From Candidatus Sulfobium sp. (GTDB lineage Bacteria; Nitrospirota; Thermodesulfovibrionia; Thermodesulfovibrionales; UBA6898), in NCBI GenBank assembly GCA_037380845.1, contig JARRRI010000011.1, forward strand, positions 1 through 60,598: DNA of 60,598 bases. Reading direction: 5' to 3'. The position numbers were made by a program, and so were the translations under genes. This document shows positions 283 through 19,632 of the stretch, piece by piece. The stretch's first letter is position 1; every line of letters starts with the position of its first letter. The notes beneath the pieces were generated by a model. That model saw only the letters and a list, made by a program, of their open reading frames with translations, ran no database searches and was not told the origin of the DNA.

Positions 283-1617
283 GGGTCTGGTTCTGATCGG
301 CTTACACTGGAAGACGGTTCAAATGTTGCAGTCATAGGAGGTGGGCCAACAGGTTCCTTCTTCAGTATCTTTGCGCTTAAGATGGCGAAGATGATGGGCA
401 AGGAAATCGCGGTCAGCATATTCGAGCCGAAGGACTTCACTAAAGATGGTCCGGGGGGCTGTAACAGGTGCGGCGGGATAATCTCGGAACTCCTCGTGCA
501 AACACTGGCAGTGGAGGGCGTAAATCTTCCGGATTCCGTAGTCCGGAAGGGCGTCAATTCCTACCGGCTCCATACAGATCATGGTAGTGTTTTTATCGCC
601 ACCCCTTCTCTGGAGAAGACCATAGCCACCGTTTACAGGGGGGGCGGTCCCAGAGGGACAATCGGGGAAGAAAAGGAGAGCTTTGACAAATTTCTTCTTA
701 ATCAGGCGATTCAGGAAGGTGCTGTCCACAAAACCGTCCGCATAGACCGCATAGAATATAGAGACGATAAACCCTTACTGTTCTCGAAAAACCTTGAAGT
801 CATGCCGGCTGATCTCGTGGTGGGCGCTTTCGGTGTAAACAGCAGTTCAGGAAAAATGTTCGAAGACCTCGGCTTCGGCTACAGGGAACCGAGCAATATT
901 AGTGCAGCCATAGCGGAGATCAGCATGAACGAGGATGTCGTAGCAGAGCATTTCGGCAATTCGATCCAGCTTTTTCTCCTTCCAGACAAGGGAATAAAGT
1001 TTGGAGCAATGATACCGAAAGGCCCCTACGTAACCCTATGCATATTGGGGACCGAAATAGGGGCTCAAACCGTTCCTGATTTCATGGAAAAACCTGTAGT
1101 CAAGGGTGTTCTGCCGCATTCTGCCCCATATTCTGTAGCGTGCCGCTGCCTGCCGAAAATGAACGTCGGCGCTCCGAAGATACCATTCGCAGACAGGATC
1201 GTTCTTTGCGGGGATGCGGGTTCCACGAGACTTTTCAAGGACGGTCTGGGTGCAGCCTACATTATGGGGAAAGCAGCCGCGAAGACCGCGGTATTTGAAG
1301 GGGTAGGAGCTCGCGATTTCGAAAAGAATTACATGCCTGTTTACAGGAGCATCGTATTCGACAATTATTTCGGCCGGTTTCTCTATTTTGTTATCGACCG
1401 TTACAGAAAGACAGCGATGCTCACAAAGGCGATGCTGAAGGTCGTCGAAAAGGAGCAGCACGATCCGATGAACGGCAAAATACTGAGTTCCATTCTCTGG
1501 GACATGTTCACGGGAAATGAAAGATATAAGAACGTATTTTTCAAATCAGCTAAGATCAGAATGCACATAGATATGTGGGAGGGGTTGATAAAAAGTCTTG
1601 TCGGAGGGGAAAAATGA
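283..1617 (+). CDS. FAD-dependent oxidoreductase (geranylgeranyl-reductase-like); start uncertain
   Basis: In-frame Rossmann motif VAVIGGGPTG lies upstream of the track's ATG382; CNRCGG motif; GDAG second FAD motif. Confidence 0.75.
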   Translation, partial: GSGSDRLTLEDGSNVAVIGGGPTGSFFSIFALKMAKMMGKEIAVSIFEPKDFTKDGPGGCNRCGGIISELLVQTLAVEGVNLPDSVVRKGVNSYRLHTDHGSVFIATPSLEKTIATVYRGGGPRGTIGEEKESFDKFLLNQAIQEGAVHKTVRIDRIEYRDDKPLLFSKNLEVMPADLVVGAFGVNSSSGKMFEDLGFGYREPSNISAAIAEISMNEDVVAEHFGNSIQLFLLPDKGIKFGAMIPKGPYVTLCILGTEIGAQTVPDFMEKPVVKGVLPHSAPYSVACRCLPKMNVGAPKIPFADRIVLCGDAGSTRLFKDGLGAAYIMGKAAAKTAVFEGVGARDFEKNYMPVYRSIVFDNYFGRFLYFVIDRYRKTAMLTKAMLKVVEKEQHDPMNGKILSSILWDMFTGNERYKNVFFKSAKIRMHIDMWEGLIKSLVGGEK

Positions 1618-2480
1618 AGGAAGGCGAACTGGGAAAGGTCTACCATGACGGAGAGATCATCTTCAGGGAAGGTGAAAAGGGAGAGGTAATGTATGTGGTT
1701 CAGTCCGGCAAGGTGAGGATTACCAGGGAAAGTACATCGGGAGAACTCACCCTCGGCGTTCTCCAAGGCGGCGCAATCTTCGGAGAAATGGCCCTTTTCG
1801 ACAAGTTGCCGCGCTCTGCAACCGCCGTTGCCTCGGGAGATGCCAGGGTCCTTTCGGTTGACAGGAAGAAGCTCTTTCCCACCATCAGTAAGGACCCGAC
1901 TTTGCTCTTTAAGATACTCGAAACGATGAGTCAGAGGATAAGGGGACTTGATGACGAGATCGGAAAATTGAAAAAGCAGCGATCGGACGTGGTAGCGGTC
2001 TGTGCGAATATTGAGCAGATGGGCCACAGGATACTTGAAGGAGCACGCAATATTATAGACGCTGACAGCGGCTCCTTAATGCTTCTTGATGAAAAAGAAG
2101 AGTATCTTTCGGTCAAGGCGGCTTTCGGACCTGAATCGGATACAAAAATCAGGCTGAAGATCGGAGAGGGGATTGCCGGTAAAGTCCTGAAAACCGGGCT
2201 GGCCGAACTGGTAAATAATGCCTCGGACGATCCGCGTTTTCTGCCCGGGGCAAAGAAGGTAACCTCAATGCTCTGCGTCCCGATCGGATGTGAAGGGCGG
2301 AATTTCGGAGTGATCAATATGAGCACTGCGGCCCAAAAATCTTTCAGTGCAAATGATCTGAAATTGCTTTGTACGCTGGCCGTTTACGCGTCCATGGCGA
2401 TCGAAAGCGAGCTGAATTTTTTTAATCTGAAGAATGCTACCGATGATCTTCTGAGACATGCGACTATGTTGGAGGCCTGA
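1614..2480 (+). CDS. cyclic nucleotide-binding domain + GAF domain protein
   Basis: IFREGEKG..FGEMALFDKLPRSATA cNMP cassette; GEGIAGKV..DDPRF..LCVPI GAF signature; ATGA overlap with upstream gene. Confidence 0.88.
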   Translation: MKEGELGKVYHDGEIIFREGEKGEVMYVVQSGKVRITRESTSGELTLGVLQGGAIFGEMALFDKLPRSATAVASGDARVLSVDRKKLFPTISKDPTLLFKILETMSQRIRGLDDEIGKLKKQRSDVVAVCANIEQMGHRILEGARNIIDADSGSLMLLDEKEEYLSVKAAFGPESDTKIRLKIGEGIAGKVLKTGLAELVNNASDDPRFLPGAKKVTSMLCVPIGCEGRNFGVINMSTAAQKSFSANDLKLLCTLAVYASMAIESELNFFNLKNATDDLLRHATMLEA

Positions 2481-2529
2481 TAATAATAAATTCCTTATAT
2501 TCGGTTGGCATCATAATCATAATTAGAGA

Positions 2530-2558
2530 TTGACAAAAAAGTATTCTCGTGATAGATT
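2530..2558 (+). promoter_or_regulatory. sigma70-type promoter upstream of riboswitch 2
   Basis: TTGACA-17 nt-TAGATT. Confidence 0.65.
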
Positions 2559-2560
2559 AC

Positions 2561-2643
2561 AGCTCGATAAAGCTAAACCTTTCGTGAGAAGGGGACAGAA
2601 AGCAACGGATCTTGGGAAAAAGATGGCCGTGCTGCCGAAAGTT
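2561..2643 (+). ncRNA. GEMM-I (c-di-GMP-I / cGAMP family) riboswitch aptamer 2
   Basis: tcgataaagctaaacc-tttc GTGA gaag-gggacagaaagcaacggatctt...aagatggccgtgctgccga; G at the position-20 equivalent (2572). Confidence 0.88.
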
Positions 2644-2674
2644 AAACAACCCGGCAGCACGGCCGTAATTTTTT
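2623..2674 (+). terminator. intrinsic terminator overlapping aptamer 2
   Basis: perfect 13-bp ggccgtgctgccg / cggcagcacggcc stem followed by a T run. Confidence 0.8.
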
Positions 2675-3187
2675 CGGGAGACTGTTACAGGGGGGAAGGA
2701 CAGACTGGTGCTCTGCGGAAGTTCATTGGAGGCTTTCGCTTCTTTTGCCTTCTTCGTCCGCCGGTCATCCGTGAAAGAAATACTTCTGTTCTGTATTGAA
2801 GGACTGGAACTTTTGGATCCAGTGGCATAAAGAAGGTAAAAGCGTATCCGAATAAATCCCGGGGGGGTATTCGATGTTACGAGAAGACGTATTTCCTCAG
2901 CTAATTTATCGCGGCAGTCCCACTGCCCCTTTCTTCTTGTTATTTTCCGAGTTCTTCCCTAACTGTAAGTTTTTTGTTACCTCCGGTGAGGTAAAGTCGA
3001 AATGCGGGCGAGCGTACCCGCTGATCATCGGGGATTCATCGCCTTTGGTTGCGAGAAATAGAACCTTGCAAAGTTCTGTCTTAACAATAGCGAAAGGAGG
3101 GATCAAGTCCGGATGGAGGGGAGTGGCATGAAGAACCATTTTAAGAATTTGATTGCATCTCAAAAAAGAGGAGATAAGGAGGAGATT

Positions 3188-4075
3188 ATGAAAAGAGGAA
3201 AACAAATAGGTCTTTTGTTCATGGCGACGGTTGCCGTAGTCCTGTCCCTGGCAGCGACACAGGCCGGGGCACAATGCACTGCCGAGGAACTAAGTGCTTC
3301 CACTTGTTTTGTAACAGGCGGTTACGAAGTGAGGACTGTCGCACCATTATTTCCGGTTCAGAATCCTGACAGCACCACGACATTCAATTATACCGTGACT
3401 CCTGTGAGTACTTCCAAAAATATAAGCATGATTGATATGCTCGTGCCAATCTGTAGTGTCAATAACGCGATCCAAACGGCCACCGGAGACCCAAATGGGT
3501 GGGGGTCTTATGGAGATCCATATGTCGGGCAGACAAAGGGATCAGGGTCACCAAGCACCGGATTCGGGCTGGGTAACATGCAGTACTTCGTCTTTGAGCA
3601 AAACTTCGACAGCAGCGGCACATTCTATATCCATACAACAAAGGCGGCATCCCAACCTACATCGATGGCACTGAAGATCGGCAATACACTGTATGCCGGT
3701 TCCATCCTGGGGCCAGCCTGCTATGACGCCGGCGTGGGCAGCACAGTCTCTCAGGAGTTCGCGGTAGATCCTTTAGTGCACCCCGGCGTCAAGTTGAAGG
3801 TTGAAAAACAGTCGAATGGCAACATTATCAGTGTCACGGCAACGGACAAAGATGGACAGCCGCTGCCGGTGACGACTCTAAGTCTCAAGGACTATCCGTA
3901 CTGGGTCTGCCTCGATGCGGATTGGCATTATTCGAACGGCATACCAGTCTACGACGGCTGCAATGGTGATCTTTCACCTGTAACCCACATACCCGAAGGT
4001 GCGTTTCTCAAGTTTGGGAATAGTTCCTGGATCAGTTACACCATCGGGGGGACGACCTATGTGATCTGGATCTGA
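3188..4075 (+). CDS. secreted beta-rich hypothetical protein
   Basis: GGAGGAG RBS; signal peptide MKRGKQIGLLFMATVAVVLSLAATQAGA; Ser/Thr/Gly-rich with several Cys. Confidence 0.75.
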   Translation: MKRGKQIGLLFMATVAVVLSLAATQAGAQCTAEELSASTCFVTGGYEVRTVAPLFPVQNPDSTTTFNYTVTPVSTSKNISMIDMLVPICSVNNAIQTATGDPNGWGSYGDPYVGQTKGSGSPSTGFGLGNMQYFVFEQNFDSSGTFYIHTTKAASQPTSMALKIGNTLYAGSILGPACYDAGVGSTVSQEFAVDPLVHPGVKLKVEKQSNGNIISVTATDKDGQPLPVTTLSLKDYPYWVCLDADWHYSNGIPVYDGCNGDLSPVTHIPEGAFLKFGNSSWISYTIGGTTYVIWI

Positions 4076-4104
4076 TTATTCCGCTCAAGACCCGACCGGA
4101 GAAA

Positions 4105-4136
4105 GCCGGGACAGGGCCGAAAACGGTCCTCTCCCG
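4105..4136 (+). terminator. hairpin after secreted-protein gene
   Basis: ccgggacagggccg-aaaa-cggtcctctcccgg; weak U tail. Confidence 0.4.
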
Positions 4137-4170
4137 GACACCTCTTATCTCGATTGATTGGTGAAATTAT

Positions 4171-6468
4171 TTGAGCAATAGAGAAAACAAGAGCGCAATC
4201 GGCGGCAAAAAGTCCAGACTGTTTAAAGCAATAGTACTGGGCCTTCTTATGGGGATAATTGGGTTGGCGGTAAGTCCCCTGCATTCCATGCTTGCCCTTG
4301 AGGAAAATGTTGGTATGGGCCTGTTGTTCAAAATGAGGGGAGCCCGACAGGCTCCGCCCGATGCCGTCGTAGTTAGCATAGACAAAGAATCTTCCGAAAA
4401 ACTCAACCTGCCCGACAATCCCGATAAGTGGCCTCGTTCACTCCATGCCCGCCTGGCTGAAACTCTGGCCAGAAAAGGAGCCGGGGTCATCGCATTCGAC
4501 GTACATTTCATAGAGCCCCGTTCCGCCGGAGACGACGCTTTATTCGCCCAGGCGCTTAGGAAGGCCGGGAACGTCGTTCTTTGTGAGCCGCTCAAAATGA
4601 AGGAAGTTCCGCTTTCCGAGGGGCGCGAGTATGATGATACGGCAAGCCATAATATCGTGAAGGTGGTGCCTCCGATTGAACTCTTTACCCGCGCCGCCGC
4701 AGCGATAGCGCCCTTTACTCTCCCAAGGATACCATTCAAGGTAAGCCAGTACTGGACATTCGAGACAGGGGCGGGAGATTCGCCCACGATGCCGGCAGTG
4801 GCGCTCCAACTTTTCACTGCTCAGGCGTACGGGGACTTCATTCACCTGTTGCAAAAAGCGAGTCCGGAGCGAGCGGGAAAACTGCCTCGTGATATCAAAA
4901 CAGCCCGTGAGACAATCGGCATCAAGGGGCTGATGAAGCAGATAAGGGCGATTTTCGAAAGAGACCCCTTCATTGAAAAGAACATGGCTAAAGAATTGGA
5001 GAGTTCGGAGTACCGGTTCGGTGATCTGAAAAGCCGACGACTGGTCGAATCCCTGATAAGAATGTACGGGGGCGGCAACAGCCGATTCATAGATTTCTAC
5101 GGGCCGCCCGGTACCGTGACTACAGTGCCATACTTCCAGGCGCTCGAAACCGGAGAAAAGAAGGCCGGCGACAAACAGATAGATTTTAAGGGAAAAGCAG
5201 TCTTTGTCGGGCTCTCCGAAGTATTGCTGGCAGAAAGAAAAGACAGCTTTTATACCGTTTTTTCCAGGGCGAACGGCACATTTATCGGCGGGGTGGAGAT
5301 TATGGCCACTGCGTTCCTGAACCTGCTGACAGATACGCCCATGAAGCCCCTTGGCACTCGCTCCTACATCCTTCTCATTTTCCTCTGGGGTACCCTGATA
5401 GGGATAGTCTGCCGGGTATTTCCAGTCGGGTATGCAGCAGTGGCTACGGTTGGCCTGGGCATTCTTTATCTGATTGCTGCGGAGTATCAGTTCAAGACCA
5501 GCAACACCTGGTACCCTGTCGTTATCCCTCTTTTTTTACAGGCCCCGGTCGCTTTTTTTGGGGCCGTAATCTGGGATTATATTGAAACAAACAAGGAACG
5601 CCAGAATATCAAAAAGGCGTTTGAGTACTACCTTCCCAAAGACGTGGTGGGTCAGTTATCGAAAGACATCGCTCATATCAAGACAGGCAGTCAGGTCGTC
5701 CACGGAGTTTGCCTATTTACGGATGTGGCAGAATACACCTCCCTGTGTGAGACTATGGGGCCAAGGGAACTGGGAATATTCATGAATAAATACTACGAAA
5801 CTTTGTTCCGGCCCGTGAAACAGCACGATGGATTTGTTTCAGGCATAATCGGCGACGCCATGCTGGCGTTATGGGTGTCGGCAGGCAGTGAGACCGCCCT
5901 CAGAGGAAAGGCATGTTCGGCGGCGCTTGACATCAACATGGAATTGCAGCGGTTTGATCAGTCGCCCGGTTGTGAAAAGCTCAAGACCCGCATAGGCCTG
6001 CACTGCGGTCAGATTTTCCTGGGCCATGTCGGCGCTCTGGACCACTATGAATATACCCCAATGGGAGATATTGTCAACACTGCATCAAGGATCGAAGGGC
6101 TCAACAAATACCTGGGCACCAGCGTGCTGGTGTCGGAAGAGATTGTCGACAGCCTTCATGGTTTCCTGATCAGGGAGGTTGGAAAGTTCAGATTAAAGGG
6201 AAAGGCCAAACCAATCGTGGCTTATGAACTCATGGGCCTCAGGGAATCAAGTGAAGAAAAACAGAAAATGTCCTGTGATGTCTTTGCGGAGGCGCTGAGG
6301 GCTTTCAGAAGCCATTCGTGGGACGCTGCGAAAGAAAACTTCAGCCGGGTCATCGAAATCCTCGGTGAAGACGGGCCATCTTTGTTTTATCTGGGACTGT
6401 GCGATCGTTACAAGGAGAATCAGCCCGCGGAATCATGGGACAAAATAGTTGAAATGGGGAGCAAGTAG
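4171..6468 (+). CDS. CHASE2-domain class III nucleotidyl (adenylate/guanylate) cyclase
   Basis: CHASE2 motifs (VVVSID, WPR, IAFD, GVEI), TM helices, cyclase motifs FTD, GDA, RIGLHCG, GDIVNTASRIEG, LKGK. Confidence 0.92.
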   Translation: MSNRENKSAIGGKKSRLFKAIVLGLLMGIIGLAVSPLHSMLALEENVGMGLLFKMRGARQAPPDAVVVSIDKESSEKLNLPDNPDKWPRSLHARLAETLARKGAGVIAFDVHFIEPRSAGDDALFAQALRKAGNVVLCEPLKMKEVPLSEGREYDDTASHNIVKVVPPIELFTRAAAAIAPFTLPRIPFKVSQYWTFETGAGDSPTMPAVALQLFTAQAYGDFIHLLQKASPERAGKLPRDIKTARETIGIKGLMKQIRAIFERDPFIEKNMAKELESSEYRFGDLKSRRLVESLIRMYGGGNSRFIDFYGPPGTVTTVPYFQALETGEKKAGDKQIDFKGKAVFVGLSEVLLAERKDSFYTVFSRANGTFIGGVEIMATAFLNLLTDTPMKPLGTRSYILLIFLWGTLIGIVCRVFPVGYAAVATVGLGILYLIAAEYQFKTSNTWYPVVIPLFLQAPVAFFGAVIWDYIETNKERQNIKKAFEYYLPKDVVGQLSKDIAHIKTGSQVVHGVCLFTDVAEYTSLCETMGPRELGIFMNKYYETLFRPVKQHDGFVSGIIGDAMLALWVSAGSETALRGKACSAALDINMELQRFDQSPGCEKLKTRIGLHCGQIFLGHVGALDHYEYTPMGDIVNTASRIEGLNKYLGTSVLVSEEIVDSLHGFLIREVGKFRLKGKAKPIVAYELMGLRESSEEKQKMSCDVFAEALRAFRSHSWDAAKENFSRVIEILGEDGPSLFYLGLCDRYKENQPAESWDKIVEMGSK

Positions 6469-6529: not shown

Positions 6530-9500
6530 ATGCGAATATCTTTACGTTTCCTGAGCTTTATGGTATGTGCAGTCTTCGGACTGGTTCTGCTGCGGCCAGG
6601 CAATTCTTTGGCGGAAACTTGCGAAAAACCGGTCGCAAAAGTAGTATCTGTGCAAGGGACCGTGCAGGTAAAAAGGGCTGGTGGTACTCAGTGGCAGCAG
6701 GTCAAATTAAACGAATCGTATTGCCCCGGGGACGTGATTCAGGTAGGGGAAAAGAGCCGGGCGGACGTTGCACTGATAAACCAACCCGTTCTTCATCTTG
6801 ATCAGAACAGTGTAATCACCCTCGGAGGAATGAAAGATGAACGGACATCTCTCATATCGCTGATCAAGGGGGCCGCTCACTTCTTCAGCCGTGTCACCCG
6901 GGGGCTTGAGGTGCAGACTGCCTTCGTAAATGCAGGTGTCGAAGGGACAGAGTTTTTCATAAGGGTTAAGGAAGGCAAGACCGTCCTTTCAGTCTTTGAA
7001 GGAAAAGTCCTGGCCTCCAACCCAGCAGGGCGCCTTGCGATCACCAGCGGCCAATCAGCAGTTGCCGAGGAAGGGAAGGCCCCTGTTCCACTTGTTGTGA
7101 TACACCCCAGGGACGCGGTACAGTGGGCGCTTTATTATCCTCCTGTGATCTATTATCGTCCCGATCAATTTCAGGCCGGCCCTGCGGCAAGCTGGGAAGA
7201 GATGGTAAGGAAATCTCTTGAGTTTTACTGGAAAGGCGACCTGAAGGGTGCATTTTCGAGTATCGAGAAAGCCCCCGGCGATATTCGTGATCCGCGCTTT
7301 TTCATCTACCGGGCGGCGCTGCTGCTTACCGTCGGGCGCGTTGACGAGTCCGAGACCGATATCCGGAGGGCGCTCAGCCTGGCCCCAGGGAACAGCGATG
7401 CCTTTGCGCTTCAGTCTATAATTTACGTTGTAAGGAACAAAAAGGAGAAGGCCCTTGACCTGGCGCATAAAGCGGTGGAGGCCGCACCGGATTCCGCGAC
7501 AGCGAGAGTAGCTCTTTCTTATGCTCAGCAGGCCGACTTTGACCTGAAGGGGGCGCTGAAGAGCCTGCAGGATGCCGTAAAACTGGAGCCCGGCAACGCA
7601 CTGGCATGGGCGAGACTGTCTGAGCTGTGGCTTTCATTCGGTGAACTTAAGAAAGCCCAGACTTCAGCACAGAAGGCGGTTGCCCTGAACCCCGACATTT
7701 CGAGGACACAGACTGTTCTGGGCTTCGCGTTTCTGACCGAGATAAAGATCAGGCAATCACAGAAGGCGTTTGAGAGGGCAATCGAGCTGGATCAGGCTGA
7801 CCCGCTCCCCAGACTCGGTCTTGGCCTGTCACAGATCCGTGAAGGGGATCTGAAAGAAGGTGCAAGGGAAATCGAGATTGCAGCAAGTCTCGACCCCGAC
7901 AATTCACTGATCCGTAGTTATCTGGGGAAAACCTATTTTGAGGAGAAAAAAGAGAAATTGTCGTCGGAGGAGTATGGCATAGCCAAGCAACTGGACCCTG
8001 AAGATCCGACCCCTTTCTTCTACGATGCCATCCTGGAGCAGACCACGAACAAACCGGTTGAGGCCTTACACGATGTCCAAAAGGCGATTGAACTGAATGA
8101 CAACCGGGCGGTCTACCGTTCCAAGCTCCTGTTGGATGCTGATCTTGCCGCGCGGAGCGCAAGCCTTGCCCGTATTTATACCGATCTCGGCTTCCAGCAG
8201 CTTGCTCTTGTTGAGGGATGGCAATCAGTCAACACCGACCCGGCCGATTTCTCCGGCCACAGGTTCCTGGCCGACAGTTACACCGCCCTGCCCCGCCACG
8301 AGATAGCACGGGTCAGCGAACTCCTCCAGTCTCAGCTCCTCCAGCCGATTAATATTACTCCCATTCAGCCGCAGCTTGCGGAAAGCAACCTGTTCGTTAT
8401 AAGCGGCGGGGGACCTGCCGAACTCTCTTTTAACGAGTTCAATCCTTTGTTCAACGGGAACCGGCTGGCGCTGCAAATGAACGGAATCGCCGGGTCGCAT
8501 GACACTGTTGGCGAAGAGGCTGTCGCGTCCGGCATTTACAACAATGCTTCTTTCAGCGTCGGCCAGTTTTACTATAAGACGGATGGATATCGGGAAAACG
8601 ATGACGTCAAGGACACAATTGATAACGCATTTTTTCAGTACAGCCTGACGCCCGAGACGAGTATTCAGGCGGAATACAGATACAGAGATACTCAAAAAGG
8701 TGATCCCACACTCAGATTCTTCCAGGATGACTTCCTGCCCAACGAGAGACAGGTAGACAGAACCAACTCGGTTCGCCTGGGTTTCCATCACTCATTCTCT
8801 CCGGGGTCCGAGCTCATCGGCAACTTCATGTATCAGCATGCAGACCGAAGTGTGAACGATATACCTGATCCTGTAACGTTCCCGTCGCTTGCTATAAAAA
8901 ACAGTGAAAAGGCTTATAGCTCGGAACTTCAACATTTGTTCAGTTCCAGATACATCAAGACTATCATCGGAGCAGGATATTTCAAGATCGACTCAAAAGA
9001 CGTAATCAGCACGGAATTACTCATACCAGCGGTGGTGTTAGGTCTTGATCCTTTACTGGGTCTTGTGCCCGTTAAGTCCTCCACCGACAGCCCGAGGGAT
9101 GTCCGTCATTACAATCTCTACTTGTATTCCTACATCGATATTGTTAAAAATGTGACATTCAATGTCGGGGGAAGCGCCGACTTTTTTAAACGACAGCTCC
9201 CAAATGGTGATTTTGACGACAAGAACCAGTTCAATCCAAAATTGGGGATCACCTGGAACCCCGTTCCGGACACCACACTTCGCGCCGCCGTATTCAGGGC
9301 CTTGAAGAGGACGCTTATTACCGACCAGACTCTTGAACCGACTCAGGTGGCCGGCTTCAATCAGTTCTTTGATGATGAAAACGGAACAGAGTCGTGGAAC
9401 TACGGCATAGCCGTCGATCAAAAATTCTCCAGGAGTATTTACGGCGGAGCCGAATATCACCTCAGAAACCTGAAAACTCCCTTTGTAGAAAGTGCCGGAG

Positions 9501-9967
9501 ACGTGATTGAACTGAGGAAAGTCGGCTGGCATGAACACGTCGGCCGTGGATACGTATTCTGGACAGCGTATAAATGGCTGGCGCTGACTGCGGAATATAT
9601 GTATGAGAGACTTGAAAGGGACAAAGACTTCGCTAACGGAGCGAGAAACGTCGAGACTCACGAGGTTCCCCTGGGAGTCAATTTTTTTCATCCCTCCGGA
9701 TTCAGTGCAGGGCTGAAAGCGACTTACATACACCAGCAAGGAAGTTTTGAGCGGCAAGGGAACCTTCGTATCTTTGAAGACGGTGCAGATCAGTTCTGGC
9801 TGTTTGACGCCGCGATCAGTTATCGGCTTCCGAAACGCCTGGGTTTCGTCACCGTAGGGGGGAAGAACCTGTTTGACAGATCATTCCAATTTTTTGATTC
9901 AGACCCCACGAATCCGAAAATACAACCGAGGAGGTTCCTTTTTGCACGGGTAACATTATCATTCTGA
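6530..9967 (+). CDS. FecR-domain / TPR / TonB-dependent-receptor-like outer-membrane protein
   Basis: signal peptide; FecR motif (AGVEGTEF); several TPRs; C-terminal barrel with NPKLG, NLFD and terminal Phe. Confidence 0.88.
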   Translation: MRISLRFLSFMVCAVFGLVLLRPGNSLAETCEKPVAKVVSVQGTVQVKRAGGTQWQQVKLNESYCPGDVIQVGEKSRADVALINQPVLHLDQNSVITLGGMKDERTSLISLIKGAAHFFSRVTRGLEVQTAFVNAGVEGTEFFIRVKEGKTVLSVFEGKVLASNPAGRLAITSGQSAVAEEGKAPVPLVVIHPRDAVQWALYYPPVIYYRPDQFQAGPAASWEEMVRKSLEFYWKGDLKGAFSSIEKAPGDIRDPRFFIYRAALLLTVGRVDESETDIRRALSLAPGNSDAFALQSIIYVVRNKKEKALDLAHKAVEAAPDSATARVALSYAQQADFDLKGALKSLQDAVKLEPGNALAWARLSELWLSFGELKKAQTSAQKAVALNPDISRTQTVLGFAFLTEIKIRQSQKAFERAIELDQADPLPRLGLGLSQIREGDLKEGAREIEIAASLDPDNSLIRSYLGKTYFEEKKEKLSSEEYGIAKQLDPEDPTPFFYDAILEQTTNKPVEALHDVQKAIELNDNRAVYRSKLLLDADLAARSASLARIYTDLGFQQLALVEGWQSVNTDPADFSGHRFLADSYTALPRHEIARVSELLQSQLLQPINITPIQPQLAESNLFVISGGGPAELSFNEFNPLFNGNRLALQMNGIAGSHDTVGEEAVASGIYNNASFSVGQFYYKTDGYRENDDVKDTIDNAFFQYSLTPETSIQAEYRYRDTQKGDPTLRFFQDDFLPNERQVDRTNSVRLGFHHSFSPGSELIGNFMYQHADRSVNDIPDPVTFPSLAIKNSEKAYSSELQHLFSSRYIKTIIGAGYFKIDSKDVISTELLIPAVVLGLDPLLGLVPVKSSTDSPRDVRHYNLYLYSYIDIVKNVTFNVGGSADFFKRQLPNGDFDDKNQFNPKLGITWNPVPDTTLRAAVFRALKRTLITDQTLEPTQVAGFNQFFDDENGTESWNYGIAVDQKFSRSIYGGAEYHLRNLKTPFVESAGDVIELRKVGWHEHVGRGYVFWTAYKWLALTAEYMYERLERDKDFANGARNVETHEVPLGVNFFHPSGFSAGLKATYIHQQGSFERQGNLRIFEDGADQFWLFDAAISYRLPKRLGFVTVGGKNLFDRSFQFFDSDPTNPKIQPRRFLFARVTLSF

Positions 9968-10088: not shown

Positions 10089-11582
10089 ATGAGCGACGGC
10101 GTTACCATAAGAATCCTCGGAGATTTTGGGCCTTTTTCGCGGATTGGCAAGAGCATCGGATACCAGGTATCACGGGGAGGGCGTTCCTACCTGATAGATT
10201 GCGGATCACCTCTTTTTCATGAAATCAGCGGACACGAGCTGAAGGCAGTGGACGGTCTCATAATAACCCATTGTCACGATGATCATAAGAGGTGGTTCAC
10301 CGATCTTGCCCTCTTCTATATGTATGCCCGGGATATAAATCAAAAGTTGCACCTCATTACGGCCGAGGAAATCCATAATGAACTCATGAAGTCATGTGGC
10401 CCTGCCCTTGATCGGAGTCTCTCGCCGGACTCCAAGAGAGTAATCGACATACCTCCGGATGAATATGTCCGTTATCGGATACTCGGGCCGCGGGCGAGAT
10501 ACAGGATAGTCTTGAGGGATGAAGGCCGGGGGAAGACAGGACTGTGTGTTGTGGACGGCGCCGGGAACGAGGTCGGACCCGAGAAGGCCAAGGTCGTAGT
10601 CAGTGAGAAGACCGGCAGGCCGAGGATGCTTTTCAAAGATCCCGACTACGGGGAGTGGGTCGAGCCGGAGAGCTTCTATCCCTTTGCTGCAAGTATATTT
10701 TATGAAGAGGACAGGAATGTGTTTCAGGATGAAGGAGGTTTGACATTCGATGCAGTAAAGGCGCCGGTCTGGCACGGGGTCCCCGCCATAGGGTTGAGAA
10801 TCACGACTCCTCACGAAAAGATCCTCTTTACTTCAGACACGGTCCATAGCCAGAACCTGTGGAAGGACCTCTATACGGAAAAGAGAAAACAGCGGTTCGG
10901 CAGCACGTCGCCAAAGGAGTTCGAATCCGCTTCCGTATTACTGGGAGACATTAATGATTACATCGAAAGAGCCTGGAGCGAAGAGCGATACGAAGAAGCG
11001 GTAAAGACGTTTGAGGAGGCCGTCATTATTCATGATGTCGCCATTTGCAACAGCGTTGTTCACACGGATTATGAGAGGCTGGATGAAACCGGCCTGGTGC
11101 GTGAAAAGACAATATTAACTCATAGCCCCGACCGGATAACATCGGAGTGGGTGTTGTGCGATGTCGGGAAGACGATCAGAATCGCGGGAAATGAATTTTA
11201 CGAGGTTGTGGATGAGGATCTCTATCCGATGGATGCGGACCTTTACGTGAAGGAGGTCGGGAAATACTACGTCGGCTACAGGCGGGAAGACGGGCGATAC
11301 AGAGTGTATGAAAAAGACGGGCTCCTCACGGTATCATCCGAAGACAGGAATGATGACGGAGCTACTTTTCTTTACAGAGTCGATCTCTACGAAGATATAT
11401 CAGGCAGATATTTCCCGAGGATAGAAGAAGGCGAGGCCCGGTATTTCAGGCGTCGGGACGGAAAAGTCGAGCGCCTGGAATTTACCGACGAAGGAAGCAG
11501 AGGAAGGGTGGTCGAAGACCAGAGGAGCAAAGTCTCGACAAAATCGTCCGTAGTTTCTCCGGGACGAGAGAACCAGGCTTGA
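10089..11582 (+). CDS. metallo-beta-lactamase-fold hydrolase (RNase Z / cNMP phosphodiesterase-like)
   Basis: LIDCG, THCHDDH (HxHxDH), later H, SDT, H and THS motifs. Confidence 0.75.
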   Translation: MSDGVTIRILGDFGPFSRIGKSIGYQVSRGGRSYLIDCGSPLFHEISGHELKAVDGLIITHCHDDHKRWFTDLALFYMYARDINQKLHLITAEEIHNELMKSCGPALDRSLSPDSKRVIDIPPDEYVRYRILGPRARYRIVLRDEGRGKTGLCVVDGAGNEVGPEKAKVVVSEKTGRPRMLFKDPDYGEWVEPESFYPFAASIFYEEDRNVFQDEGGLTFDAVKAPVWHGVPAIGLRITTPHEKILFTSDTVHSQNLWKDLYTEKRKQRFGSTSPKEFESASVLLGDINDYIERAWSEERYEEAVKTFEEAVIIHDVAICNSVVHTDYERLDETGLVREKTILTHSPDRITSEWVLCDVGKTIRIAGNEFYEVVDEDLYPMDADLYVKEVGKYYVGYRREDGRYRVYEKDGLLTVSSEDRNDDGATFLYRVDLYEDISGRYFPRIEEGEARYFRRRDGKVERLEFTDEGSRGRVVEDQRSKVSTKSSVVSPGRENQA

Positions 11583-11638: not shown

Positions 11639-12655
11639 ATGTCAAAGACAGACTCTGTCTTTGGGGAATTGACAGGCTCCGACCTGAACAAAATCAGGGC
11701 GCTGGCAGTCAGAAAAACCTGCAAGAAGGGCGAGCTGATATTTTCCGAAGGCGACACGGCAGATTACGTATATTTCATTGAGACCGGACGCGTTTCCATT
11801 TTTATCCGGAAATTCACTGACCAGGAAGAAATTGCCACGCTCGGGCCGGGTGAGTTCTTTGGCGAGATGGCAATATTTCATAAGGACAAAAGGACAGCTT
11901 CCGTCGCAGCCCTGACCGACACAACCCTCTTAAGCATCGACAGGAATGTTTTTATGAACTTCCTGCAGGCTGATCCCTCAGCGGCCCATAAGATCAACAC
12001 AGTCCTTGCCAGACGGAACGAAGAACTTATCCTCAAGGAAAGCCTGCTCGACATCACCGGCATGAAGGGGAAGAATTTTCACGTGAGCATCAAGGGTGAC
12101 CCGTCGATGCGGGAGACTACTTTTACAAGGGAAAGATATGAAAGCGTAGTCGACAAGATCCTGCCGCTGCTCGGACCCAATCTGGAAGACCTGTTGCTCA
12201 ACCGGTGCGTCTATCAGGTCTTCGTCGCCTTCAACAGCGGAGAGGTCCACACCTCGTCCGTGTTTGAACCGTTCGGCGAGGAAATTCATCAGGCAAACAA
12301 GCTGATTGACAAAGCTTTTATCGAACGTCATTTCCCCCGGGTTGCGTACGAAGAAAAAGTGATGATGGTCAGGCGAATATATCAGGCGATCGCCCGTGAT
12401 CCGGTCTCCGGCAGCCTTCCCGGCCATTTCAGGAAAATTTTCAGCTCCTATTATGAAAACTGGAAGCCTGTCAGGCCGGAAGAACTTTCGAATACCATAT
12501 CAAGACTGACCGCCCTCAGAAGTATCCCCAACTATTATCTTCGCAATTTCACACTAAACGCGACCCGGGATGCCATTCGCATGCAATTCAATTGCGACGG
12601 AACGCACATCGTCAGCGCTGAAGATTATCAGCGTTTTCTAGAAGAAAACCTTTAA
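11639..12655 (+). CDS. cyclic nucleotide-binding protein with unrecognised C-terminal domain
   Basis: IFSEGD..FFGEMAIFHKDKRTASV cassette. Confidence 0.85.
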   Translation: MSKTDSVFGELTGSDLNKIRALAVRKTCKKGELIFSEGDTADYVYFIETGRVSIFIRKFTDQEEIATLGPGEFFGEMAIFHKDKRTASVAALTDTTLLSIDRNVFMNFLQADPSAAHKINTVLARRNEELILKESLLDITGMKGKNFHVSIKGDPSMRETTFTRERYESVVDKILPLLGPNLEDLLLNRCVYQVFVAFNSGEVHTSSVFEPFGEEIHQANKLIDKAFIERHFPRVAYEEKVMMVRRIYQAIARDPVSGSLPGHFRKIFSSYYENWKPVRPEELSNTISRLTALRSIPNYYLRNFTLNATRDAIRMQFNCDGTHIVSAEDYQRFLEENL

Positions 12656-12817
12656 GGGAGGGGCGGCGGTCCCGGTGTGCATCCGTCGCGCAGATGTTAC
12701 AGTGCCTTATCATGGTGGAAGGCCCATGACGGGGCTTGTCGGTCCGCGAACAGGAACGAAGCAGGTCGGAAAGCGGACAAGGTCTTCACGAGAAAACGTC
12801 GCGGTCTCCGCAAAATA

Positions 12818-13780
12818 GTGAAAGATAACTTGTCGGAAAAGATAAAATTGGGAATCAGTTCCTGCCTTTTGGGCCGGAAAGTACGCTACGACGGCGGGCA
12901 CAAACTCGACCATTTCCTGGCGGACACTCTGGGTAAGTTCGTGGAATGGGTGCCGGTGTGCCCGGAAGTCGAAAGCGGACTGCCGGTGCCAAGGGAGGCT
13001 ATGCGGCTGGTGGGAAGCCCCGATGCGCCACGTCTTGTAACAGTTCGCACGGGCGAAGACCACACCGGGCGGGTGGAAAAATGGGCCGGGCGAAGACTTT
13101 CAGAACTGGAAGAAGCCGGTCTCTGCGGGTTCGTCTTTAAGAGCCGCTCACCGAGTTCGGGCCTGCGCGATGTTAAGGTTTATTCGACGGCCGGCGTCCC
13201 GTCAAGGAAGGGGGCCAGCATTTTCGGCAAGGCATTTATGGAGAGGTTTCCGCTCCTGCCGGTCGAGGATGAAGGAAGGCTCAATGACCCCGTCCTCAGG
13301 GAAAATTTTATCGAGAGGGTCTTCGTCTTCAGGAGATGGCGTGGTCTTCTCGAAAAAAGGCTGACGGCCGGCAGCCTGGTAGCCTTCCATTCGGACCACA
13401 AACTTCTCATCCTTTCTCACAGTCCTGCTCACTACCGGTCACTGGGCCCACTGGTAGCACATGCGAAAGATCATCCGCTGAGGGAATTACATTCGGAGTA
13501 TATTAAGATCCTTATGGAGGGCCTGCGGCTCATCTCCACAAGGGCAAAAAACACTAACGTCCTTCACCATATAATGGGGTACTTCAGGAAAAATATCTCA
13601 GCCTCCGAAAAGGCGGAGCTTCTCGAAATCATCGGGAACTATAAAACCGGTCTCCTCCCCCTGATAGTCCCTGTTGTCCTCCTGAACCATTATGTGCGCA
13701 TATACGATGTCCCTTATCTGAAGAGGCAATATTACCTGAACCCTCATCCGCTCGAACTAATGCTGAGAAACCACGTCTAG
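12818..13780 (+). CDS. DUF523/DUF1722 (YbgA-like, 2-thiouracil desulfurase family) protein
   Basis: GISSCLLG..VRYDGGHK, CPEVE, KSRSPSSG, C-terminal YLNPHP.ELMLRNHV. Confidence 0.88.
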   Translation: MKDNLSEKIKLGISSCLLGRKVRYDGGHKLDHFLADTLGKFVEWVPVCPEVESGLPVPREAMRLVGSPDAPRLVTVRTGEDHTGRVEKWAGRRLSELEEAGLCGFVFKSRSPSSGLRDVKVYSTAGVPSRKGASIFGKAFMERFPLLPVEDEGRLNDPVLRENFIERVFVFRRWRGLLEKRLTAGSLVAFHSDHKLLILSHSPAHYRSLGPLVAHAKDHPLRELHSEYIKILMEGLRLISTRAKNTNVLHHIMGYFRKNISASEKAELLEIIGNYKTGLLPLIVPVVLLNHYVRIYDVPYLKRQYYLNPHPLELMLRNHV

Positions 13781-13789
13781 GCCCCGCCT

Positions 13790-13818
13790 TTGACAAACGC
13801 CTTTTTTTAAACTATAGT
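13790..13818 (+). promoter_or_regulatory. sigma70-type promoter of the pentose-phosphate operon
   Basis: TTGACA-17 nt-TATAGT. Confidence 0.7.
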
Positions 13819-13904
13819 GGAAAAAAGATTGACTATTACATATGATTCCGGCTGCATCTTTATCGTATTGAATTTTTAAAGCCTCAACTTCCACTCAGGG
13901 ACTG

Positions 13905-14579
13905 ATGATGAAAATCGTTCCGGCGATACTCGCTGAAAATTATGAAGACTTTGTCCTGAGAATCAGGCAAGCGGAGACCTTTGCGCCGTACGTCCAGATA
14001 GACTGCATGGACGGGATCTTCGTGCCGACGAGGAGTATTCCTCCCGAAACAATCGGAGATCTGAATACCTCCCTCTCTTTCGAGCTCCACCTGATGGTCC
14101 GTAATCCCTCTTCCTTCATGGACAAGGTCGAAAACAGCGGGCTGAAAAGGGTCCTGTTTCATTTCGAGGCCGAGGTGGACCATTCGGGTTTCATGGAGAT
14201 ACTGAAAAATCGCGGGCTAAGCCCGGGGCTTGCAATCAAACCGGAGACTCCGATCGACGACTTCACCCGTCCAGCTTCCGATGCCGACGCCCTTCTCTTT
14301 CTGACGGTCACGCCGGGACAATACGGAAGTTCATTCAGACCGGAGGTGCTGGAAAAAGTGGCGGACGCCAGACGGAGGTTCCCGGACAAGCTTATCGGGG
14401 TGGACGGCGGTGTTTCTCTTGACAACCTAAAGTCTTTCGTCGGTATAGGCGTGGACTATGCCTGTGTGGGCAGCAGGATATTCCTCGACGGAAAACCCGC
14501 TGAGAACTACCGTAGCTTCATGGAAAAGGTGAACGAGCTCGAAAAAAACAGGGACAGTCGTCATGCAAAGTCCGGGTGA
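13905..14579 (+). CDS. rpe: ribulose-phosphate 3-epimerase
   Basis: QIDCMDGIFVP, ELHLMV, VDGGV. Confidence 0.9.
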   Translation: MMKIVPAILAENYEDFVLRIRQAETFAPYVQIDCMDGIFVPTRSIPPETIGDLNTSLSFELHLMVRNPSSFMDKVENSGLKRVLFHFEAEVDHSGFMEILKNRGLSPGLAIKPETPIDDFTRPASDADALLFLTVTPGQYGSSFRPEVLEKVADARRRFPDKLIGVDGGVSLDNLKSFVGIGVDYACVGSRIFLDGKPAENYRSFMEKVNELEKNRDSRHAKSG

Positions 14580-14593
14580 GGAGGCTAAATTTC

Positions 14594-15052
14594 ATGAAAA
14601 TAGCTGTTGGTTCGGACCACGGGGGATACTCTCTGAAAGGCATCATATCAACATATCTAAAGGAGCAGGGACATGAAGTAATTGATGTAGGTGCCTTCAG
14701 CCTGGAGCCTCTGGACGATTACCCCGAATCATCCCGGGCGGTGTCGGACGCACTCCTCACGGGTAAAGCTGAAAGGGGGATATTGATTTGCGGCAGCGGA
14801 GTCGGTGCATCCATCGCCGCCAATAAATTCCCCGGCATCAGGGCCGCCGTCTGCCACGACACATTTTCCGCTCATCAGGGGGTGGAGGACGACGATATGA
14901 ACGTACTGTGTCTTGGCGAGCGGATTGTGGGAAATGAGCTCGCCAAAGAGATCGTGGCTCGCTTTATTTCGGCCGGTTTCTCGCATGCCGAACGTCACGT
15001 GCGCAGGCTGAGCAAGGTAAAGTTAATAGAGAAAGAGTTCATGAAGACGTAG
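14594..15052 (+). CDS. rpiB: ribose 5-phosphate isomerase B
   Basis: GSDHGG, DYP, CGSGVG, ANKFPGIRAA, RHVRR. Confidence 0.95.
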   Translation: MKIAVGSDHGGYSLKGIISTYLKEQGHEVIDVGAFSLEPLDDYPESSRAVSDALLTGKAERGILICGSGVGASIAANKFPGIRAAVCHDTFSAHQGVEDDDMNVLCLGERIVGNELAKEIVARFISAGFSHAERHVRRLSKVKLIEKEFMKT

Positions 15053-15166
15053 ACAGAGTCTGTTTTAAAGCAGCATTTGCCCGGTTTGCCTGCCATTCCG
15101 ATTGTCTGGCGGCAGACAGGAGCGTTGCAGTTGCGGGGTGACATTAACTTTCACGGGAGGTTTTTT

Positions 15167-16714
15167 GTGATCAGGGGAAGAGAACCAATTGACAGCAGAT
15201 TTCTCCAGACATGCGATATACAGGTGGAGGAATTCAACGTCGAGCCTTTTACCATGGTCATTTTCGGCGGCGCAGGGGATCTCGCGAGGAAAAAGCTCCT
15301 GCCGTCCATCATGCATCTGTTCTCTGAAAAGGAGCTTGAGAATGGATTTTCAGTGCTGTCCTTCGGGATGCCCGGGATGGACGACAGTTCATACAGGGAA
15401 CTGGTGAAAGATTCTGTTTTGGAGTTTGACGGGAAACTGCCTGATGAAAAGGACTGGGCGAAGTTCAGCAGTCATTTTTACTATCTGTCGGGGCGTTTCC
15501 AAGATGAAAAAGCATATGAGAGTCTGAAAGAAAAATTATACGACATATCCGTCCCGGCGGGAAAGGGTAAACGCAATATTATCTACTATATGTCGGTCCC
15601 GCCCCAGGTCGTACCTCTCGTCGTGAGCAAGCTCAAAGCCCACGACCTTTGCAGGAATTCCTTCAACACCAAGATCATAGCAGAAAAACCGTTCGGGCAT
15701 GACAGGAAGTCTGCAGCTGAACTGAACAGGGTCCTGATAGACGCCTTTGACGAGAACCAGATTTACCGCATAGACCATTACCTCAGCAAGGAACCGGTCC
15801 AGAACATCCTTTTTTTCCGTTTTTCAAACTTTATTTTTGAGCAAGTCTGGAACTCAAATTATGTGGACAATGTCCAGATCACCGTTGCAGAGGATATCGG
15901 GATTGAAAAGCGCGGGGCCTTTTATGAAGAGACCGGGGTTGTCAGGGATATCGTTCAGAACCACATGCTCCAGATCCTGGGTCTGATCGCCATGGAACCG
16001 CCTGTAGGTTTCAAAGCCGATTTCGTACGGGACGAAAAAACCAAGATCTTCCGTTCTATCTACCCCTTCGACGATGATTATATAGACAGGTTTACCGTCC
16101 GTGGACAGTACGGTCCCGGCAGGATAAAAGGCAAAAGAGTGCGCGGATACAGGGATGAGGAAGATGTCTCTCCTTCCTCAAACCAGATAACTTTTTTTGC
16201 GGCGAAGTTTTACATAGATACTCTCCGGTGGGCGGGCGTGCCCTTTTACGTGCGCACGGGCAAGCGTCTGAGGAAGCGGGTGACGGAGATATGTATCCAG
16301 TTCAGGCAGGTGCCCCTCCGGATAATGGGACGGTCATGTGACGTGATCGACCCCAACACCCTTATTCTGACGGTTCAGCCCGACGAAAGGATTTCCCTTC
16401 GTTTCGATGTCAAGTATCCTTACTCGCCAAATCAGATATATCCCACCAACATGGTCTTCAGCTACGGCGATACTTTCAGAACCGCATTTCACCCGCCTTA
16501 TGAGAGACTGCTTCTGGACTGCATGAGGGGAGATCTGAGTCTATTCGTCAGGCAGGATTCCGTGGAGGCAATGTGGGAGATAGTAGACCCGATTATAAGG
16601 CGCTGGGAGGAGACTGCTCCCCTTGACTTTCCGAACTACGCTGCCGGCAAGTGGGGACCGACAAAAGCCGGTCTCCTTCTGAAAAAAGAAAAAAGGGACT
16701 GGATAACCTCATGA
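15167..16714 (+). CDS. zwf: glucose-6-phosphate dehydrogenase
   Basis: GGAGDLA, EKPFG, RIDHYL, QNHMLQ; GGAGG RBS before GTG15167. Confidence 0.95.
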   Translation: MIRGREPIDSRFLQTCDIQVEEFNVEPFTMVIFGGAGDLARKKLLPSIMHLFSEKELENGFSVLSFGMPGMDDSSYRELVKDSVLEFDGKLPDEKDWAKFSSHFYYLSGRFQDEKAYESLKEKLYDISVPAGKGKRNIIYYMSVPPQVVPLVVSKLKAHDLCRNSFNTKIIAEKPFGHDRKSAAELNRVLIDAFDENQIYRIDHYLSKEPVQNILFFRFSNFIFEQVWNSNYVDNVQITVAEDIGIEKRGAFYEETGVVRDIVQNHMLQILGLIAMEPPVGFKADFVRDEKTKIFRSIYPFDDDYIDRFTVRGQYGPGRIKGKRVRGYRDEEDVSPSSNQITFFAAKFYIDTLRWAGVPFYVRTGKRLRKRVTEICIQFRQVPLRIMGRSCDVIDPNTLILTVQPDERISLRFDVKYPYSPNQIYPTNMVFSYGDTFRTAFHPPYERLLLDCMRGDLSLFVRQDSVEAMWEIVDPIIRRWEETAPLDFPNYAAGKWGPTKAGLLLKKEKRDWITS

Positions 16715-17466: not shown

Positions 17467-17507
17467 CCTCTTTCCGTTATCCTACTGACAAAATAATCCA
17501 GTTTCGG

Positions 17508-17548
17508 CTATATAAAGTTTATATAGTCGCTATGTAAAACTTATATAT
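17508..17548. promoter_or_regulatory. tandem palindromic sites (candidate enhancer-binding-protein UAS)
   Basis: ctatataaa-g-tttatatag perfect palindrome plus degenerate copy ctatgtaaaacttatatat, about 70-110 bp upstream of a sigma54 site. Confidence 0.5.
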
Positions 17549-17618
17549 GTTCAGCCTCTCCCGATCCATCCATGCGGACAAAGTCCTTTTAAAACGCAGT
17601 AATATTCTACGCTGAGAG

Positions 17619-17635
17619 TTGGCATCGCCTTTGCT
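17619..17635 (+). promoter_or_regulatory. sigma54 (-24/-12) promoter
   Basis: TTGGCAT-CGCCT-TTGCT. Confidence 0.7.
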
Positions 17636-17760
17636 AAATTTACTGCCGTATTACAGACTTTCAGATGTCTGAATGAGTTTATTTTTGGGCTGGGGCAATA
17701 GCATCAAGAGGGGGGCGGCGTAAGGTTTCGGTATACACACTGAAGTTTTTCGCTGCACGG

Positions 17761-17814
17761 GATCCGGCCGGGTGTGGAGAGGGGATCTAAACACCCGGCC
17801 GGATCTCTTTTTTA
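17761..17814 (+). terminator. strong intrinsic terminator
   Basis: 15-bp gatccggccgggtgt / acacccggccggatc stem followed by tcttttttt. Confidence 0.8.
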
Positions 17815-19622: not shown

Positions 19623-19632
19623 GGGCCGGGCC

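Follow-up and report, generated by a model that had tools for sequence, protein, structure and literature searches.

We found that the CHASE2 receptor cyclase encoded at 4171..6468 (plus strand) in a window of 60,598 nucleotides from Candidatus Sulfobium sp. (contig JARRRI010000011.1; the window is the whole stretch of DNA that was analysed) carries Gly at the position that normally sets the substrate of a class III cyclase, where Lys specifies ATP and Glu specifies GTP. Alignments and a tree indicate that this residue, Gly558, is a derived and selected state of the first base-reading position, and that it lies within an orthologous family that gave up the Lys throughout. The protein is probably an intact and active inner-membrane receptor cyclase. 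We give a probability of about one half to the reading that its main cellular product is cyclic AMP (cAMP), made with weak discrimination against GTP and thus with a loose choice of purine.

In adenylyl cyclases Lys contacts N1 of adenine and Asp or Thr contacts N6, and in guanylyl cyclases the contact of Glu with N1/N2 of guanine is the main determinant, while the second residue may only give shape to the pocket (PMC7384201, in excerpt). With Gly at 558, neither the Lys–N1 contact to adenine nor the Glu–N1/N2 contact to guanine is possible. Since both canonical contacts are gone, base choice would have to rest on Thr629, on backbone or water contacts and on the shape of the pocket. The gene and the parts of its product are as follows.

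4171..6468, plus strand: gene for the CHASE2 receptor/class III nucleotidyl cyclase, 765 aa (P0001), from the open reading frame (ORF), Pfam, AlphaFold2 and Foldseek
4288..5403, plus strand: CHASE2 sensor domain, residues 40–411 (Pfam PF05226)
5713..6228, plus strand: class III cyclase catalytic domain, residues 515–686 (Pfam PF00211, phmmer, Foldseek)
6238..6465, plus strand: conserved three-helix C-terminal tail of about 75 aa, residues 690–765 (model helices, alignment)

The Pfam match to CHASE2 scored 88.5 bits, and that to the Guanylate_cyc family 63.4 bits against a cut-off of 21.9. An AlphaFold2 model of the 765-residue protein, for which a 50-sequence alignment served as input, had a mean pLDDT of 85.9. 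From the N terminus, it consists of one helix (residues 7–34), the CHASE2 domain, three long helices within residues 396–484 (396–416, 419–444 and 451–484), the cyclase fold and the three tail helices (696–713, 717–731 and 735–749). Because CHASE2 is flanked by one N-terminal and three C-terminal helices, the sensor is predicted to be periplasmic. The top Foldseek matches in the PDB were class III cyclases (OaPAC, bPAC, CyaB, CyaC and Cya2), with E values of 1e-10 to 1e-12 and TMt values up to 0.82. The tail belongs to no Pfam family (a chance-level match was all that was obtained at E ≤ 1). It is nevertheless conserved in the homologue alignment, in which D734 was invariant and W717, G735, Y740, C744, W756 and K765 were nearly so.

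The residues expected to carry out catalysis and to read the base were located in the reading frame.

5722..5724, plus strand: Asp518, first metal-binding Asp of the F-T-D motif (F516-T517-D518 = TTT ACG GAT, 5716–5724; codon reading)
5842..5844, plus strand: Gly558 (GGC), at the site of the adenylyl-cyclase Lys or guanylyl-cyclase Glu (alignment with bPAC and OaPAC)
5854..5856, plus strand: Asp562 (GAC), second metal-binding Asp, in G-D-A (codon reading)
6055..6057, plus strand: Thr629 (ACC), second base-determining residue, the same as in class IIIb cyclases (codon reading, alignment)
6061..6063, plus strand: Met631, pocket-side residue that covaries with the Gly-Thr state and is Val or Ile in Asp/Asn-Arg forms (clade contrast)
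6076..6090, plus strand: Asn636 (AAC, 6076–6078) and Arg640 (AGG, 6088–6090), the transition-state pair, in N-T-A-S-R (codon reading)
6202..6204, plus strand: Lys678 of the K-G-K motif, putative phosphate contact by analogy (position from the reading frame and translation)

The register of the two base-reading positions was set by phmmer alignments with the solved photoactivated adenylyl cyclases bPAC and OaPAC. Here 'dgfvsgiigdamla' of the window protein aligned with 'ggevtkfigdcvma', which places Gly558 on the Lys, and 'yeytpmgdivntasr' aligned with 'mdhtllgdavnvaar' and 'rdytilgdavnvaar', which places Thr629 on the Thr. A sequence-only reading of this DNA had described the metal-binding Asps (FTD and GDA) and the NxxxR motif as intact, had recognized GGC at the substrate Lys site and had noted that the Thr of YEYT was kept; the codons and the alignments bear it out on all three points. 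The complete class III set was thus present, namely two metal Asps, the transition-state Asn and Arg, and the phosphate Arg and Lys; the phosphate role given to Lys678 follows what is established for class III cyclases. The canonical adenylyl cyclase pair was found by half, Thr629 being an accepted residue at position 2 (Asp or Thr) and Gly558 taking the place of Lys at position 1, and the Glu that marks a canonical guanylyl cyclase at position 1 was likewise replaced by Gly558.

We examined the conservation of these residues among the query and its 120 best matches at the level of 90%-identity clusters (n = 121), which are 61–100% identical over residues 490–765. D518, D562, N636, R640 and K678 were each present in all 121 sequences and R607 in 120. 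At site 558, 117 sequences had Gly, three had Asp and one had Ser, so that the Gly seen by the sequence-only reading is conserved; Lys occurred in none of the 121. Thr was found at 629 in 116 of the sequences, and the pairs at 558/629 were Gly-Thr (115), Gly-Ser (2), Asp-Arg (3) and Ser-Thr (1). Six Gly-type genes from independent assemblies were read as DNA, and among them GGC, GGG, GGA and GGT all occurred; since all four Gly codons are in use, conservation acts on the amino acid. The combination Gly-Thr-x-Met was also found in a genome of the same genus (G001; domain 97% identical) and in one of the same family (G005; 70%).

A scan of 1.84 billion cluster representatives returned 5,201 proteins below an E value of 1e-30. 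From these we took the best 150, which together with the query make up 151 representatives; all 150 had E ≤ 4e-153 and were 36–57% identical to the query over the matched stretches. Asp518 and Asp562 were each Asp in 150 of the 151. The site of the Lys was occupied by Asp in 109, Asn in 22, Gln in 5, Glu in 5, Gly in 4, Lys in 2 and other residues in 4, so that an acidic or amide residue stood at position 1 in 141 of these representatives. Position 2 was mostly Arg (113), followed by Thr (16), Ala (8), Ser (4) and various residues in the remaining 10.

A second sample consisted of 74 typed genome sequences, that is, the window and 73 loci from species-representative genomes. The commonest pair was Asp-Arg (33 of 74), followed by Asn-Arg (13), Asp-Thr (6), Gly-Thr, Asn-Gly and Gln-Arg (4 each) and Asp-Gly (3), with seven further pairs occurring once each. 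None of the 74 had Lys at position 1. This absence, together with the 2 Lys among the 151 representatives, indicates that Lys was given up across the whole orthologous family, in which the usual pair is Asp-Arg or Asn-Arg.

To place the Gly-Thr pair among the other states, we computed a phylogeny from 333 sequences after masking both determinant columns, with Sinorhizobium meliloti CyaK as the outgroup; proteins shorter than 600 aa and locus ORFs shorter than 330 aa were excluded. The window sequence fell within a clade of 117 tips, 111 of them Gly (support 0.885), whose successive sister groups were Asn-Arg, Asn-Arg/Gly-Arg and Asp-Arg/Asp-Thr. By parsimony, Gly was gained or lost six times on the tree, and the sequences P0123, P0148 and L014 have Gly although they lie outside the main clade. 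The topology indicates that Gly-Thr is the derived form, its subclade being surrounded by Asn-Arg and Asp-Arg forms.

The two positions appeared to change together. Of 119 tips with Gly, Ala or Ser at 558, 117 had a residue other than Arg at 629; as the tips are related, this describes a pattern and does not count independent events. By Fitch parsimony, position 558 had changed 39 times and position 629 had changed 29 times, compared with a median of 75.5 over the 184 columns of the domain and 0–9 for the catalytic residues. Because 39 and 29 are well below that median, the two positions appear to be constrained inside clades while switching between them. When 112 Gly-Thr/Ser sequences were contrasted with 166 Asp/Asn/Gln/Glu-Arg sequences, only positions 545, 558, 629 and 631 of the cyclase domain separated the two groups; this contrast revealed no new basic residue that could stand in for the missing Lys.

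Two side observations concern relatives of the gene. Four loci from the same family or order (L091–L094, in G006, G033, G021 and G018) encode other cyclases with the Lys-Thr pair, in frames of 695–772 aa and with a domain about 30% identical to that of the window cyclase, so that Lys-Thr, Asn/Asp-Arg and Gly-Thr cyclases exist in different genomes of this lineage. In another genome (G028:C18:53339-55575; L088/L095) an orthologous Asp-Arg cyclase is divided between two overlapping frames, which match residues 12–314 and 308–763; the likely cause is a frameshift or a gene that has been split.

The 3.18-Mb genome is 100% complete and contains this gene as its sole PF00211 match. It has no class I cyclase, one CYTH protein and five cyclic nucleotide (cNMP)-binding ORFs, two of them in the present locus. 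The genes around the cyclase are listed below.

382..1617, plus strand: 411-aa protein of no Pfam family, FAD/NAD(P) oxidoreductase-like by its placement in a protein atlas
1575..2480, plus strand: cNMP-binding + GAF protein, 301 aa, with the phosphate-binding cassette FGEMALFDKLPRSAT (...PRSAT), candidate receptor of the product
3113–4075, plus strand: 320-aa protein of no Pfam family, predicted to be secreted and containing several Cys; it ends 96 bp upstream of the cyclase
6530..9967, plus strand: 1145-aa protein with FecR domain, TPR repeats and TonB-receptor-like beta-barrel (TonB_dep_Rec_b-barrel), NsrA-like partner, 62 bp downstream of the cyclase (Pfam, BLASTP)
10089..11582, plus strand: metallo-beta-lactamase-fold hydrolase, 497 aa, with an HCHDDH motif, flanked by the FecR-barrel and second cNMP-binding genes
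11639..12655, plus strand: second cNMP-binding protein, 338 aa, with the cassette FGEMAIFHKDKRTAS (...KRTAS, R-T-A); its orthologue in G001 is 83% identical

We looked for a homologue of the FecR-barrel gene in the 70 related loci that have at least 500 bp of downstream sequence. In 60 of them it lay directly downstream of the cyclase on the same strand and in 5 it occupied another place in the locus; the remaining 5 yielded none. The FecR-barrel protein has a nearly invariant Cys31 (6620–6622) after its predicted signal peptide and a highly conserved 'PRDAVQWALYYPP' motif (residues 193–205) after the FecR domain.

Orthologues of the cNMP-GAF protein adjoin the cyclase in G001, G005, L008 and L009. 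The 411-aa protein, whose atlas placement (score 0.99) serves as a lead only, has orthologues in the same four (84% identical in G001 and 71% in G005), and because it always lies beside the cNMP-GAF gene it may be the regulated effector. The block of oxidoreductase-like, cNMP-GAF, cyclase and FecR-barrel genes is kept in G001 and G005, both of which have Gly-Thr cyclases, and in L008 and L009 it recurs in another arrangement, there with an Asn-Arg cyclase. G005 (L097) has in addition a second cNMP-GAF copy (17224–18084, 55% identical) and a further cyclase-domain match (19365–19898, 27%), about 6–8 kb downstream of its Gly-Thr cyclase.

Other neighbours are less widely shared. The 497-aa metallo-beta-lactamase-fold protein, which may be a cyclic-nucleotide phosphodiesterase, was kept in G001 only (residues 79–131 are missing from the match) and was not seen in 79 related loci. 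By tblastn, the 320-aa protein had no homologue in these 79 loci or in G001 and G005, which gives its gene the look of an insertion specific to this lineage, placed between the cNMP-GAF and cyclase genes. This secreted protein aside, the ORFs of at least 30 aa at 2400–4200 included no obvious candidate for a small Cys-rich protein. At E ≤ 1, no Pfam family matched the 411-aa or the 320-aa protein, and none matched the C-terminal part of the 338-aa receptor, a stretch of 220 aa that belongs to no known family. Farther along, positions 12677–16714 (plus strand) encode a DUF1722 + 2-thiouracil desulfurase protein, ribulose-phosphate 3-epimerase, an RpiB-type isomerase and glucose-6-phosphate dehydrogenase; these are ordinary metabolic genes and probably have nothing to do with the module.

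We considered whether the receptors encoded nearby disclose the product and rejected this readout. A cNMP-binding ORF with a recognizable cassette was found in 19 of the 79 loci, often as a divergent ORF of 216–266 aa just upstream, which we would guess, from its size, to encode a Crp-type regulator. The cassette was R-S-A in 17 of the 19 whatever the pair of the cyclase, R-C-A in one and R-T-A in one, so that it did not discriminate between products.

The locus belongs to a known kind of module. In S. meliloti, a plant signal reaches the CHASE2 cyclases CyaD1, CyaD2 and CyaK by way of NsrA, these cyclases raise cAMP, and cyclic-nucleotide receptors belong to this NsrA–CyaK–Clr pathway (PMC13001267, in excerpt). 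As there, the CHASE2 cyclase of the window adjoins a FecR outer-membrane barrel protein of about 1150–1200 aa. The window cyclase was 27% identical to CyaK over 422 residues (E = 1e-28), and its FecR-barrel neighbour matched, over nearly its full length, the FecR protein encoded beside cyaK on pSymB (BLASTP E values of 1e-17 and 1e-15), which we take to be NsrA. The two marks of an NsrA/CyaK-type module, CHASE2 on the cyclase and an adjoining FecR-domain beta-barrel protein homologous to the putative NsrA, were thus both present. There are also differences: CyaK has the canonical Lys ('DKYIGD') and Ser at position 2, whereas the window cyclase has Gly-Thr; the S. meliloti FecR gene lies upstream of cyaK, so that the gene order is reversed; only the window cyclase has the conserved 75-aa tail; and, unlike in the Clr pathway, the receptors of the window lack a helix-turn-helix Pfam match and do not look Crp-type.

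Synechocystis Cya2 (PDB 2W01) resembles the window cyclase in combining CHASE2, membrane helices and a class III domain with a residue other than Lys at position 1 (sequence E = 1.1e-12; fold TMt 0.79). Cya2 is a CHASE2-regulated guanylyl cyclase that the single change E488K turns into an adenylyl cyclase, and its C-terminal extension is functionally needed (PMC5995499, in excerpt); the window cyclase also carries a C-terminal extension. The pair in Cya2 is Glu-Gly (PMC4215837, in excerpt), and unlike this Glu, the Gly of the window cyclase offers no guanine-binding carboxylate. The best sequence and fold matches were class IIIb Lys-Thr adenylyl cyclases (bPAC, OaPAC, Pseudomonas aeruginosa CyaB and Spirulina CyaC), which share with the window cyclase Thr at position 2 and the metal and transition-state residues. 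They differ in having Lys where the window cyclase has Gly, as the alignments with bPAC and OaPAC show, and in their sensor domains. Mycobacterial Rv1900c and Rv0386 also lack Lys; their pairs are presumably Asn-Asp and Gln-Asn, and we take them to be mainly adenylyl cyclases with guanylyl side activity. They belong to other families and architectures, and unlike the window cyclase, which has no side chain at position 1, they have a polar one. In Campylobacterota a CHASE2 cyclase, a phosphodiesterase, a FecR protein of the outer membrane and a TPR protein are clustered and probably form a single pathway (PMC9239204, in excerpt); in contrast to the fusion in the window, FecR and TPR are there separate proteins.

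The setting did not resemble that of a Pycsar-type system: the window protein is a membrane receptor and not a cytosolic cyclase, and the genes around it encode a receptor partner, proteins that bind cNMPs and metabolic functions (PADLOC was not run). In a word-based search of open-access papers we found neither Gly nor the Asp-Arg pair described at these sites of CHASE2 cyclases. What is known here is the NsrA/CyaK kind of module and the class III cyclase; what is new is the base pocket, with the family-wide absence of Lys and the Gly-Thr-x-Met subclade.

From these parts we propose the following path. The cyclase, with its periplasmic CHASE2, four membrane helices, class III domain and helical tail, would be an inner-membrane receptor and the output of a trans-envelope module of the NsrA/CyaK type. 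The FecR-TPR-barrel protein in the outer membrane would pass a signal from outside to CHASE2. The catalytic domain, presumably working as a homodimer like other bacterial class III cyclases, would then make a 3',5'-cyclic purine nucleotide, to be read by the adjoining cNMP-binding proteins. A complex prediction for CHASE2 (residues 38–395) and the FecR part (residues 28–250), both supplied as alignments, returned no answer, with a score of 0.00, and we draw no conclusion from it. In the clade of the window, an ancestral Asp/Asn-Arg pair would have been replaced by Gly-Thr, with Met631 changing alongside.

We favour cAMP as the main product of this enzyme, with a loose choice of purine, because Thr, a hallmark of class IIIb, has been kept, the ancestral acidic or amide side chain has been lost, and ATP is the more abundant nucleotide in cells. 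The kept Thr and the lost side chain would fit ATP or loose purine use at least as well as cyclic GMP (cGMP). The sequence-only reading had gone further and proposed an active cyclase of non-canonical specificity. The intact catalytic set and the absence of the canonical base-selecting residue agree with that proposal; non-canonical specificity as such is not established, and the suggestion of a cyclic pyrimidine found no positive support. That reading also lacked the context in which, judging from the homologues, Gly is one state of a variable pair in a large NsrA/CyaK-type CHASE2 family that hardly ever has Lys and mostly has Asp-Arg.

Several observations weigh against cAMP with loose purine choice. 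The ancestral residues at position 1 (Asp, Asn, Gln or Glu) have the polarity of the guanylyl-cyclase Glu, so that this may be a cGMP lineage in which even the Gly-Thr form might favour GTP. One of the two neighbouring receptors has an R-T-A cassette, the other having R-S-A, and the R-T-A type occurs in cGMP-dependent kinase. In engineered cyclases, loss of the Lys usually lowers activity. Positions 558 and 629 are far more changeable than the catalytic sites and so could matter little. Finally, the gene has a scattered distribution in related genomes: out of 41, 13 had a match at E ≤ 1e-50, and about eight of these had true orthologues.

The alternative that survives best, which we regard as possible although unlikely, is that the enzyme is a guanylyl or dual cyclase with cGMP as the signal. 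The Asp/Asn/Gln/Glu-Arg pocket of the family would then be one that reads guanine, and the Gly-Thr clade would retain the use of GTP by means of Thr629, Met631 and water. The acidic or amide residue in 141 of the 151 representatives has the polarity of the guanylyl-cyclase Glu, the main determinant for guanine (PMC7384201, in excerpt), but Gly itself lacks an acceptor for guanine N1/N2, the contact regarded as decisive for such enzymes. Position 2 of guanylyl cyclases can be filled by Cys, Ser, Thr, His, Ala or Gly (PMC4215837, in excerpt). The CHASE2-linked Cya2 is a guanylyl cyclase (PMC5995499, in excerpt), yet the nearest sequence and fold matches were Lys-Thr adenylyl cyclases; and while one neighbouring receptor has the R-T-A cassette, most of the adjoining cNMP-binding proteins have the generic R-S-A.

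It is possible, although unlikely, that the base pocket of the NsrA-type CHASE2 cyclases has switched in nature from one pair to another (Asp-Arg, Asn-Arg, Gln-Arg, Asp-Thr, Asn-Gly, Gly-Thr and others) and that different lineages make different cyclic nucleotides. The majority Asp-Arg form would then be an unrecognized and widespread bacterial guanylyl cyclase, and the product of the Gly-Thr form would be something other than plain cAMP: cGMP, both purine cNMPs as separate signals for the neighbouring R-S-A and R-T-A receptors, or a pyrimidine cNMP.

We consider it improbable that the cyclase is weak or inactive, with a domain whose main role is scaffolding or regulation. Replacement of the Lys commonly lowers activity in model cyclases, but the metal, transition-state and phosphate residues were invariant or nearly so across hundreds of homologues, the cyclase part was 61–68% identical across many of the 120 matches, and this is the sole class III cyclase of a genome that keeps five cNMP-binding ORFs.

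A cyclic pyrimidine (cCMP or cUMP) or another unusual product is very unlikely. A pocket free of side chains might suit a different base, and what speaks for this is confined to the absence of both purine-reading side chains and the coordinated change at 558, 629 and 631. The 40 matches to solved structures, however, comprised only adenylyl, guanylyl and generic nucleotide cyclases, the context is one of receptor signalling with ordinary cNMP-binding proteins and not a defence operon, and a smaller base in a larger pocket has no obvious fit. Nothing was found in favour of the view that a Lys-type adenylyl cyclase has here undergone a private mutation or been misread in sequencing or assembly; this is ruled out by the 117 Gly among 121 close homologues, the four Gly codons in six assemblies and the absence of Lys from the 74 genome loci.

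The only class III cyclase of this genome has neither Lys nor Glu at the specificity site. The family to which it belongs comprises more than 150 clusters at 50% identity, from Nitrospirota, Desulfobacterota, Rokubacteria, Gammaproteobacteria and others, and automatic annotation labels most of its proteins 'adenylate cyclase' without evidence. At stake are how a cyclase picks its base without the canonical contact and whether cGMP signalling is far commoner in environmental bacteria than has been assumed. The conserved pairing with the FecR-barrel protein and the adjoining receptors make up a complete signalling path in which these questions would be testable.

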